Source: Styela clava (taxonomy: Eukaryota). Taken from it: a stretch of DNA of 64,000 nucleotides. The DNA lies in NCBI RefSeq assembly GCF_964204865.1, contig NC_135253.1:15624001-15688000 (forward strand), read 5' to 3'. This document shows positions 18,252 through 22,399 of this stretch, piece after piece. Both the position numbers and the translations under genes were made by a program. Below the pieces are notes generated by a model that was not told the DNA's origin, did no database searches, and saw only the letters and a program-made list of their open reading frames with translations. Each line of letters starts with the position of its first letter. Position 1 is the first letter of the stretch.

Positions 18252-21200
18252 ATGTCTGCTAATAACGGTTTTATCGAACAAGAATTTGAAAAAATATTCA
18301 AATCGGAAGAATTGTTGAAAAAATGCGCAAACTCATCTATCGAAGTAGCCAAGAAGCAGAGCTTTTTCTTTCAGTGGTATGACAAGTCAAGAAAACCTGT
18401 AAGTATTTGGCGTGTGCTTAGCACAGTAAAATAAGTTAATGTTTTAGAACAAAATTAGGTAACAATTTAATTACTTGGAAATTCGCTGCATCCTAATTGT
18501 ACCAGATAACATTCTTTTAAACCTTTATAAAATTTCCTGGTAAGCACCATCTTTTATACAGTAGCATTTTATTGAGACACCCATATTCAGCATCAGGCAG
18601 GTCAATACATGAATAATGTTTGCTGCTGGTTCTCTTCACAGCACAATAAGATGGCTCCATTTTGTTTGTTTCCATCGCGAATACCCAGAAATGTTATTCG
18701 AAGAGTAAACCAAGTTTGCCCAGAATTTCATAAACTTCATCATAATGTCAGCTTTGATTTCGATTTCGTAAAGAAAGGATTGGACAGGTAAATTCTACTC
18801 TGTTTGCGTTTGTATAAATCACGGTAATATGATAAAGTTATGTTTAGTCATAAATTACATATATATTGTTATAGAGTTAAATATTTACTTTTAGTGTTAC
18901 AAAAGCGGACTGGTTCGTTGAAAAAATGTTTGGCATATACGAAAGAGTGTCTAAATCAGTCAATCGTGAGGTAAGTCAAATGGTTATTCTGGTCCTCCAA
19001 GATGTACGGTAAGTGTCGAATGTCCGTATCAGGTGCGGGTAGTTCTACTTGACAGCAAGTATCTATCATGACAAGTTTGTTTGTGATTCATCCCTTTATG
19101 TGTAAAAAGTGATGCGTTGCAATGGTATTTTTTCAACTTCTGTACCCAAAAAAGAATTTAGTTATAGCACTTTTTACGATGTGATGATTTAAATAAATAT
19201 ACGCATGTGTTGTTGTTAACAATTCCTACAAATTTATCGTGTAATTGAACAACTCATTATGATTAATCTGGTATTTAATACATATGGTAAATAATTTACA
19301 TTCCAGGAACGATATGAGCTATCAATAACGAGAGCAGATTACATGGTGACTAAAACTGCTGAAGGAATCCAACTTCCCAAACTTTTGGAATGGGGTGTTT
19401 CAGGATGGGGATTTGGTGTAGAAAGTTTTCTCAAGCAAATTTACAAACGCTCCTTACTGGAAGCGAGAATTCAATTTGAACAAGGTTTTACTGGCAGGAA
19501 TATGACGCTTGGATTGGCTGAAACGTTTATCAAAAGTTGGAAAATATACAACAAGTCAAACACCGGAATATTGATTGTTGTCAGCGAAGAATATTTTTGC
19601 CTCATGGAATGTCACAAATTGAAAGAAAAAATATTAGAAATTGACCATGATATTTTTGTAGACATTTTAACACTACAGGAAGTGAGCAAGAATCTTACAC
19701 TTGGAGGTCAGAAAGAGTTGTTAGTGTAAGTAATGTATCAATATACATGTTATTATGCTGAGAAATGCTTCTTTTGTACAAAAAAATATTGGTAATTTAT
19801 GAAGGATTAATTAATAGCGATATAGTGATCATCTTTAGTTTCAGAAGTCTGTTATGGGCTTTGAATTTATATGTCATATAAAAAATTAATACTATCAACC
19901 TAAGTCGCATTTTAATAAAAAACACAATTACAAAAACCGACTTTGTCTATAATTTGTGGTACATTGCAAATACTGTATGCTCATTTGAATATAGTCTATA
20001 AATGTTATCAATAAAGTGATTTTATATAGTCTAAAAGAGGCGACATTTTTAGAAATGGAACAGAGTATGGAGTTGTTTTTCTTCTCACGGGATTTGAAGA
20101 ATTTGAATATCAAACTGAACAGGTATGTTGCTTTTATAACTATACATTTACGTTCGATGGTATTTTTTATGTACGATTTTTGCTCAGAAATGCATGTTGG
20201 TAATAAAGCTATATAAAGTTGAAAGAATGTTTGCAAGCGTCTATTTCACATATTTATGAATTTTTTCAACTGTTTTTTTAAACTCAGGATTGGATCGCCC
20301 GTGAGCTGATGGAATATAGCACTGCTATTTTGTGTCCAAATATTTGCCATTCGATCGTGGAGCTAAATAAAATTATGGAAATTATGTCAAGACCCAAACA
20401 TATGGAAAAATACGTTGACGATTCGGAGGCTGGTCTCATCAGGAATACTCTTGTTGAATATCGAACTCTAGAACAGGTAAATATCTTAATGTTCAAAATA
20501 TGTGACAAAACGCAGATGGAGTAATTTTCATGTGATACATTGATATTCAATTTATTCTGTTTGAACTGTTGCTCATTCAAAAAGGCAAATTGCAACCACG
20601 CAGTTATTACTTATCGATCTTAAGATCGATAAGTATGTTGATAGGTATTTGTCTGTTTGTTTGTTTGTTTGTCGGTTAGATACACGCAATATCTCACGAA
20701 AGCGAGGTTGATTCTGCTCCGGTTGATTTTGCATGTGCATTCATCATTGTTCGGAGCAGAAGCCTATCGATTTTAGATGGATTATGTCGTATAATTAGCA
20801 AGTTAATTAGCAATTAATTAATTAGTGATGGGACACACGGTGTCACTATGGAGTAAGACCACTGTTTTGGGACATCCCCTAACCTCCGATCGATAAGTCC
20901 TCGGTTTCCAACCGAATTCTAGTTGAAACGTTGCATCGTTCATAATATCTTTTATTTGATTGCGTTATATTTTCAGGGCATGGTAGGCGACATGAATGCA
21001 AAACTGGGAATCACGAATCCCCACGAATACGTGTTAAAAGATCAGAGAGAGGGCGGAGGTGAAACTTTTTGTTTAAAACAAAGCAAGTGAATAAAATAAA
21101 AATGGAATAAACCTTTGACTGCTCATTGAAGTGAAGCATTGCAAAAAGAACGTGAATCCTCCATTGGCTCAATTATTTATAGAACCTAAAATTCTGTGAA

Positions 21201-22399
21201 GTCTAGTTATTTTCATATACGACGAAAGGACAACACGTGCCTGTTGACAATGTGGGTGATATAATAAGTTATTACAAAGCAAATTGCATTCATGAATTTA
21301 GTTCTTTAATCTTGTTTTCAGTAAAATACTTTCGTGAAGAAGTTAAGAATATGCTGAAGAAATATCAAGGCACGCAACAAAGGTATTTTTAGTATAACTA
21401 GATTTGAACATTACTCTTGTCTTGACTATTTTACCAGAATGTCTCTTTGGGGGTCCACGATGACTGCACAGGGGGTCCGCAACGAAATGCAAAGGCTCTG
21501 ATCGATCCCTAATGATTGATATTAATCAAAAGGCCATTGCATCTTATTGGTTGAGTGTTGCGGACTAATATCCATTGTTGTCCGAAAAGGCATTTACAAT
21601 GTTATTGACTTTTGCAACGATCTACATATGTGAAGAAGCATTTTCAGCTTTACCCATATGATGACAAAATACAGGTCGAGACTTGCCGTGGACTCGGAAC
21701 TACGAGTTTGCTTGTCACAATGTCGTTTGTGTTGTAAATGAAATATTATCCTTCCTCGTTGGTTTGGCACAGAAATTGATACGGCTTATTATTGGGGTCC
21801 CCGTAGCCTAATAAGTTTGGAAAACTCTGTATTTGACAATAACATTTAACAGATTATAATGTATATCAGCAGCACTTAGTAAAATAACAAAAAGATTGTG
21901 TTTTATTTGAGGGGCCAATATATTCTCGTGGATCATATCAAACCAGTTATTGGAAAAAACGTTATGATTTTTTCGGATGAAAATCCAGATCTTACTGTTG
22001 TAAACACCGTCACAGAAATTTCTTCATTCGGAGCCTTCCTCACGTAAGTTACATCATATATCGTTTTTAATATTTAGAAAAAAAACTTTTAATGTTCCCA
22101 TGATATGTTATGTCCACGTGTGAAAAAGCTTTAGCTATGGAAAATATGCGGCATACATCGAAATATATAAATTTTCCGATCGTGTTATGGTCATAAATAG
22201 GACTTTTTTTCAGTATATAGAGCATAGATAGGTCGTGGAGCTCACTAATTTGTACTTGATTTTTTTCTTTTGCAGTAAAGGAAGAAATATCATAATAAAC
22301 GAATGCTTTGGGAACATTTCCAGGACGAAGCAATATGGAGTTGACGCAATCAGCACATCTAAAGGCAATTTTGCTTTGGATCTCATATTAACTACATGA
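18252..22399 (+). CDS. GSS-like: Divergent eukaryotic glutathione synthetase-like ATP-grasp protein, copy D (481 aa)
   Basis: Exons 18252-18398, 18642-18787, 18895-18970, 19307-19725, 20053-20122, 20288-20476, 20977-21058, 21322-21382, 21912-22043, 22276-22399 total 1446 nt, open. Motifs APFCLFPS, TRADYM, DWIARELMEYS..CP, YVLKDQREGG, YIL, TEISSFG, SRTK. Confidence 0.9.
20606..20924 (+). mobile_element. HINE/DINE-1-like element in intron 6 of gene D
   Basis: Perfect palindrome ACTTATCGATCTTAAGATCGATAAGT, (GTTT)n, 3' subterminal inverted repeat plus stem-loop; absent from the paralogous intron of gene E; twin at ~47941-48249. Confidence 0.7.
21440..21829 (+). mobile_element. hAT (Charlie/Buster) non-autonomous remnant with transposase C-terminal dimerisation-domain relic
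   Basis: Translates SYWLSVAD*YPLLSEKAFTMLLTFATIYICEEAFSAL / TKYRSRLAVDSELRVCLS; right end GTTTGGAAAACTCTG; twin at ~48763-49152. Confidence 0.75.

Follow-up and report, generated by a model that had tools for sequence, protein, structure and literature searches.

Remodelled glutathione synthetase paralogs in a gene array of the ascidian Styela clava: candidate ATP-dependent ligases with new substrates

The fold of glutathione synthetase (GSS) has been put to new uses more than once. Precedents are the GSS-like (GS-like) effectors of nematodes (PMC5919673) and the fungal enzyme Cp1B (PMC12568646). In plant-parasitic nematodes repurposed GSS copies are already documented (PMC5919673). Here we describe a chordate case of seemingly independent origin, that of the ascidian Styela clava. 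We analysed a stretch of 64,000 nucleotides (contig NC_135253.1, positions 15,624,001 to 15,688,000; hereafter the window), in which a preliminary description had noticed, from the letters alone, a GSS paralog with a rebuilt substrate pocket at positions 18252–22399. We confirmed this observation and call the gene D1. The Styela case goes further than that of the nematodes, as two residues kept by every aligned homologue (N146 and K305 in human numbering) are gone and the site is still under selection. The present analysis also adds that D1 belongs to an array interleaved with proline-racemase-family genes, two of them remodelled, and an FLVCR-like transporter, a context absent from the preliminary description.

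D1 lies on the forward strand and consists of 10 exons (18252–18398, 18642–18787, 18895–18970, 19307–19725, 20053–20122, 20288–20476, 20977–21058, 21322–21382, 21912–22043 and 22276–22399), with the ATG at 18252 and the stop codon ending at 22399. All introns are of the GT..AG type, and the exons form a single open frame of 481 amino acids. The product is identical, letter for letter, to a Styela clava database protein labelled glutathione synthetase-like (P0004, NCBI). It scores above the cut-offs of both eukaryotic GSS families of Pfam, PF03917 and PF03199 (GSH_synth_ATP, E 2.4e-52; GSH_synthase, E 1.7e-12), and its top sequence match in the PDB is human GSS (2hgs, E 3.4e-46). The AlphaFold2 model (mean predicted local distance difference test score, pLDDT, 94.6) superposes on human GSS, a check that had been proposed for this gene, with a template modelling (TM) score of 0.90 over 474 columns; it is biased toward the GSS fold, because the 110-row input alignment (4 paralogs and 106 of 149 other matches) was mostly canonical GSS.

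A family search of the genome revealed a second GSS locus, on contig C18, whose gene model is intact, with all motifs canonical. The array is thus not the only GSS lineage in the genome; had it been, the preliminary description would have taken its claim as refuted. The C18 protein is 26.6% identical to D (124/466), and all 8 of its introns coincide with introns of D in phase and, to within 3 alignment columns, in position; D has one intron more. D is therefore an extra copy. We infer from the shared introns that its origin was the duplication, at the DNA level, of a GSS gene from an animal; they rule out horizontal transfer or a retrocopy. The phylogeny with metazoan GSS that had also been suggested was less decisive: in quick trees of 38 and 20 rows the branch of the paralogs is so long (~3.7–3.9 changes per column) that it was not placed, and grouping with the tunicate GSS clade was neither rejected (approximately unbiased, AU, test, p 0.469) nor shown. 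In the history that we propose, the housekeeping GSS would have been duplicated in the genome, and the copy would have reached another chromosome, diverged fast and then multiplied in tandem.

Residues are numbered below as in human GSS, from the alignment of D1 to 2hgs, with roles taken from PMC2845819, PMC5919673 and PMC12568646. Their frequencies refer to 140 homologues drawn from 149 listed phmmer matches (380–630 amino acids, plus one fragment). D keeps R125, D127, M129, E144, V362, K364, E368, G369, G370, I401, E425, R450 and K452. Several features of an active ligase are thereby present, namely the R-x-D pair (R125 and D127), E144 and E368, the adenine/ribose pocket and R450/K452. PMC5919673 tabulates 15 positions of the ADP pocket; of these, D matches human GSS at 8, has conservative changes at 4 and non-conservative ones at 3. 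In D1 itself, the segment at 19331–19411 encodes the retained R132 (R125), D134 and E151 (E144) together with the changed G153 (N146) and G156/G158 (S149/S151), the two glycines flanking a new tryptophan.

The residues that select the substrate have been replaced. In the rebuilt gamma-glutamyl pocket (19592–20095), human E214, N216, Q220, R267 and Y270, whose roles are described in PMC2845819, correspond to Y219, C221, C225, L274 and F277, so that none of the five is kept; R267, now leucine, is present in 139 of the 140 homologues. The segment at 22322–22366 carries R457 (R450), K459 (K452) and the rebuilt A-loop A465–G471, in which positions 459–463 read I, S, T, S, K and nothing remains of the glycine-selecting G459-G460-V461-A462 (0/4). 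The donor pocket is now hydrophobic (Y, C, C, L, F, W) and the acceptor loop polar (S, T, S, K).

Further changes concern the surroundings of the nucleotide. E311 (G303; glycine in 133/140 homologues), N313 at the position of the lost K305, and K314 (K306) are encoded at 20360–20371. A region that spans intron 7 (21037–21326) encodes K370 (K364), E374 (E368), K378 (N373; 130 asparagines and 8 leucines among the 140 homologues) and a G-loop of 7 residues instead of the 8 found in 138/140. M398 is replaced by valine, E399 by aspartate and A463 by lysine (K470). None of the intact copies of the array differs at K378, E311 or K470.

In general, the alignment bore out the by-eye reading of the preliminary description. 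The retention of R125, E144, K364, E368, E425, R450 and K452 is correct, and so are the changes of N146 to G/S, R267L, Y270F and K305N and the altered S149/S151 region. Its replacement of the ERNIFDQ motif is real, with a shift of register: the true changes are E214Y, N216C, D219E and Q220C, and the E of EYF corresponds to K213. The A-loop was rightly described as replaced, with D458–G464 aligning to AISTSKG and the new residues being mostly polar, not hydrophobic. To the changed G-loop we add that it is one residue shorter and that N373 is lysine. The idea of more hydrophobic substrates fits the acyl-donor pocket and does not fit the acceptor side.

The whole lineage is confined to one place. 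All 88 genome matches to P0004 lie on contig C4 at 15.63–15.75 Mb, in an array of ~120 kb. Exon mapping over 224 kb gave seven full-length GSS-like copies (D1, D2, E1, E2 and F1–F3), three 5′-truncated ones and fragments. Six of the seven are intact; the exception is E1 (25085–29117, reverse strand, 83% identical to D), which has a premature TAG at 26496–26498 (codon 346). D2 (45585–49722, forward) is an intact duplicate of D1 with a synonymous divergence (dS) of 0.03, and E2 (52407–56431, reverse) is an intact duplicate of E1 with 483 amino acids. Decayed GSS-like sequence is found at 8685–9795 (forward; exons 2, 4 and 5 with stops) and, between E1 and the transporter, as exon fragments at 29294–32287 (reverse).

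The D, E and F lineage is under purifying selection. By the Nei-Gojobori method, the ratio of nonsynonymous to synonymous divergence (dN/dS) is 0.21–0.22 for D-E, 0.26–0.31 for D-F and 0.25–0.26 for E-F, at a dS between types of 0.25–0.41 and with bootstrap limits of 0.15–0.45. Within types it is 0.11 (D1-D2) and 0.20 (F1-F2). Over 13 kb the array units share 98% identity; they may partly be haplotypes, which would alter the copy number only. As separate observations, the three truncated copies (L011, L013 and L017, all forward) start in the middle of exon 4 and keep an open frame, and their exon 6 is followed by a GC donor; a ~62-base tandem repeat marks the edge of the duplicated unit (15227–15493 and 42597–42998). 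A dispersed repeat of ~220–320 bases, resembling a miniature inverted-repeat transposable element (MITE), occurs in both orientations (8430–8653, 9744–10305, 20602–20924 and 47945–48248), and one copy of it sits in intron 6 of gene D.

What could such a protein do? D-type proteins belong to the GSS family by descent. Two of the features that define an active GSS-type ligase are missing from them, but their function is, judging from sequence, most likely ligase-like. We propose that they are ATP-dependent carboxylate-amino acid ligases with new substrates, to which we give a probability of about 0.5. ATP would occupy the retained adenine/ribose pocket (M129, V362, K364, E399D, I401, E425 and K452), with Mg held by E144 and E368. 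R125 would hold the carboxylate destined for the acyl phosphate and R450 the carboxylate of the incoming amino acid. The donor would no longer be gamma-Glu-Cys and would bear an uncharged group of hydrophobic or aromatic character; the acceptor would not be selected for glycine and would face the polar A-loop with its new lysine. The loss of K305 and N146 would require a replacement, and K378 (N373K), K470 (A463K) and E311 (G303E) are candidates that might compensate for it.

The distribution of changes is consistent with this proposal. Catalytic and nucleotide side chains are kept at 7 of 10 positions and substrate-selecting ones at 0 of 9 (Fisher p 0.003). Among the six intact copies, 1 of 22 nucleotide, metal and catalytic positions varies as against 116 of 459 elsewhere (p 0.022), and 3 of 37 vary in the whole site (p 0.016), values that are uncorrected for burial and come from positions picked by hand.

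These numbers have to be set against a series of points that speak against an active ligase, beginning with that lack of correction. Retention at 7 of 10 positions does not exceed that of conserved columns in general (37/65, p 0.31). The asparagine of the E-x-N motif, N146, is glycine in D and F and serine in E, and it is present in 137 of the 140 homologues, the other 3 being gaps. Of the two phosphate lysines K364 is kept and K305 is asparagine, at a position where 139 homologues have lysine and one a gap. Lysine at 373 or glutamate at 303 occurs in none of the 140 homologues, so that the proposed compensation is without natural precedent among them. Human GSS mutants of N146 and K305 reportedly lose most of their activity. 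Some distant ATP-grasp enzymes (PurK, PurT and BacD), on the other hand, are active without an asparagine of the N146 type. N146 and K305 are both kept in 30/30 tabulated Globodera pallida GS-like proteins, which are themselves without a demonstrated product (PMC5919673). The L-amino acid ligase described in PMC9486568 has asparagine at the site equivalent to N146. In Cp1B the N165A mutant has 0% activity, as do E163A and D141A, and R139A retains 8.6% (PMC12568646); N165 probably corresponds to human N146, according to the E-x-N pattern and the text of that paper.

Because the site statistics have to be weighed against the loss of N146 and K305 and the dead Cp1B mutant, we also consider a pseudoenzyme, which we regard as possible, if less likely than the ligase. 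Such a protein would bind ATP or ADP and a small molecule, or act as a scaffold or a regulator of GSS, without phosphate transfer. It would explain why the phosphate and metal residues N146, K305 and N373 changed together, with a one-residue G-loop deletion that is seen in none of the 138 homologues whose loop is complete; the adenine/ribose residues are kept, and purifying selection does not require catalysis. It is less easily reconciled with the invariance of R125, E144, E368 and R450, which have carboxylate- and metal-binding roles, and of the two new lysines and the glutamate, which are sequence neighbours of the lost residues or lie in the lid and A-loop. An ATP-using enzyme that is no amide ligase, for example a carboxylate kinase or another enzyme with an acyl-phosphate reaction, would fit the altered phosphate-binding geometry next to an unchanged R125/E144/E368, but is improbable given that R450, the arginine for the acceptor carboxylate (PMC2845819), is kept and invariant. 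If the ligase is active, neither K305 nor the asparagine of E-x-N would be indispensable to a GSS-type ATP-grasp enzyme; if not, the array encodes a GSS-derived pseudoenzyme.

It is well supported that D-type proteins are not glutathione synthetases, as the preliminary description had supposed, and glutathione synthesis is unlikely because neither the gamma-glutamyl residues nor the A-loop are kept and a canonical GSS is encoded on C18. The small molecule that the array copies produce or bind is probably another one. An isoenzyme still making glutathione would account for the fold and the Pfam scores; we consider it hardly credible in view of the replaced pocket, including the almost universal R267, and of nematode proteins with comparable pockets, which have lost the activity (PMC5919673). 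A recently relaxed, dying array, or one that is partly an assembly artefact of uncollapsed haplotypes, is also very improbable. The stop in one of the seven full-length copies, the three truncations and the several fragments could be read in this way, and the near-identity of the units and a dS of only 0.01–0.04 for D1/D2 and F1–F3 could be allelic. D, E and F are nevertheless separated by a dS of 0.25–0.41 with dN/dS far below 1, as it also is for D1-D2 and F1-F2, and the same proteins are recorded under an older accession series. The copy number may be inflated; the D/E/F lineage is real.

The D-type motif occurs in none of the 140 aligned homologues from a phmmer search of 1.84 billion cluster representatives (1149 hits), in which the best matches beyond the own cluster are 24–33% identical and one 244-amino-acid fragment reaches 40%. 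Word-index searches of protein clusters (206 and 6519 candidates) yielded no more than 3 clusters, each with an S. clava label. No D-type orthologue was found in these cluster searches, which likely cover few ascidian proteomes, so this is not proof of a Styela-only family. An exon search with two neighbouring racemase-family genes, R1 and R2, gave 1 weak match among 16 candidates, and the matches in the ESM Atlas were confined to clusters of ordinary GSS and proline racemase. We found no paper on ascidian GSS copies in open-licence PMC and bioRxiv.

The order of the locus is a peroxidase gene 13 kb left of the window, R1, a GSS-like fragment, R2, D1, E1 and a transporter, followed by four further units. 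Each of these consists of a racemase-family gene, a forward and a reverse GSS-like gene and a transporter; two more racemase-family genes follow. R1 (723–2558, forward; same sequence as database protein P0161) is intact, with its first exon just left of the window, and 89% identical to R2 (11288–14119, forward; same sequence as P0163), which is intact with 344 amino acids. R3 (39290–41610, forward) has the Cys/Cys pair and a last exon that breaks off after ~14 codons, and is a probable pseudogene.

R1 and R2 match PF05544 and have cysteine at both catalytic positions, a pair that marks racemases and epimerases in the proline racemase family (PMC3958920). In both, MCGH has become MCGE and DRSPCG has become GRGPCG, so that glutamate and glycine replace the histidine and aspartate which bind the carboxyl or the ring nitrogen (PMC4364671). 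HHDM reads HHAV in the two proteins. They are under purifying selection (R1-R2 dN/dS 0.23) and 45–47% identical to three other modelled family members, with dS saturated. Taken together with the GSS-like genes, two unrelated enzyme families, 4 kb apart, have kept their core and replaced their specificity residues. The other racemase-family copies on C4 and one on contig C6 have ordinary motifs, and R5 appears frameshifted. The C6 copy (L023) is of the Cys/Cys type. The last racemase-family gene of the array (L019 near 6850–9090; C4 15.765–15.767 Mb) is Cys/Thr, the dehydratase type, and the Thr/Cys switch is recent because this gene is 92% identical to a Cys/Cys copy.

The transporter, a member of the major facilitator superfamily (MFS), is FLVCR-like (E 1e-8) and lies at 33525–35397 (reverse, ends approximate), with a second copy near 59110–61078 (reverse). 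Non-homologous enzyme and transporter genes lie side by side here, which is one mark of a biosynthetic gene cluster. We considered that this could be such a cluster in an animal, in which GSS-type ligases, the R1/R2 epimerase and the transporter act in a joint pathway; from sequence features, this is tentative and rather unlikely. D, E and F would join amino acids or acyl-amino acids non-ribosomally, with a rewired phosphate and metal site lacking N146 and K305. R1 and R2, without the ligands of the proline ring nitrogen, would act on an N-acylated or peptide substrate and invert one of its residues, and the transporter would move the product. The locus would then be a candidate pathway for small modified peptides of ascidians, with the animal itself as producer instead of a symbiont. 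Against it, the multiplied unit holds the ordinary racemase type and not R1/R2, so a tight coupling of the two is not favoured. The transporter is weak evidence for a cluster, since its family is strongly expanded and spread over the genome (56 matches on 11 contigs, 51 of them outside the array). The remodelled epimerase next door is still a lead to host-encoded small-peptide chemistry in ascidians. Tunichrome Sp-1 has been reported from Styela plicata, and a 2010 review describes the enzymology of such compounds as practically untouched (PMC3039461); a link between tunichromes and the array genes is speculation. A general tunichrome synthetase is unlikely, since several orders of ascidians have tunichromes (PMC3039461) and no orthologue was found in the cluster searches.

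Other genes around the array were also noted. The peroxidase (L009:3953–6718, reverse) is a single open frame of 922 amino acids with an animal haem peroxidase domain and a Mucin2 WxxW repeat. A single open frame of 388 amino acids (L024:4933–6096, forward) looks by eye like a membrane receptor, without a good Pfam match. Right of the array (L020), exons resembling branched-chain ketoacid dehydrogenase alpha and elongin C were recognized by eye.

Compared with human GSS (2hgs), D has the same fold (TM 0.90), domain order and R125/D127/E144/K364/E368/E425/R450/K452, and with the GSS of its own genome it has the intron pattern in common. It differs from the human enzyme in identity (~25–28%), in all gamma-Glu residues, the A-loop, N146, K305, N373 and G303, and in the shorter G-loop. 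Plant homoglutathione synthetase (3kal) is, like D, a GSS duplicate with a changed A-loop; unlike D, it has an unchanged gamma-Glu-Cys pocket and a complete ATP site, and its product is a glutathione-type thiol. Four other GSS-like proteins of marine invertebrates (P0013, P0018, P0025 and P0056, labelled Lineus, Branchiostoma, Mercenaria and Anneissia) have altered gamma-Glu or A-loop residues and keep N146 and K305; milder repurposing of GSS may be common in invertebrates. The fungal pseudodipeptide ligases Cp1B, Cp2B and AnkG (PDB 9cjn; PMC12568646) are clustered GSS-type ATP-grasp enzymes of specialised metabolism with an R-x-D and E-x-N core. Cp1B shares with the D model a TM score of 0.51 and 12% identity, and, unlike D, it keeps and needs the asparagine.

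The closest parallel is offered by the clade 3 effectors of cyst nematodes (Gpa-GSS22, GSS30; PMC5919673). They, too, are a lineage-specific expansion next to a retained housekeeping copy, and they share with D a catalytic arginine that is retained, a glutamate pocket that is replaced and small side chains at both serine positions. The introns that D has in common with the GSS of its own genome suggest that it arose independently of them. The N-terminus of D shows no apparent signal peptide by eye, unlike that of the secreted nematode effectors. Two marks of clade 3, namely kept N146/K305 and a hypervariable glutamate pocket, are absent from D: the nematode proteins retain both residues in all 30 cases and vary their pockets (PMC5919673), whereas the D-type proteins have lost both and their pocket is nearly fixed.

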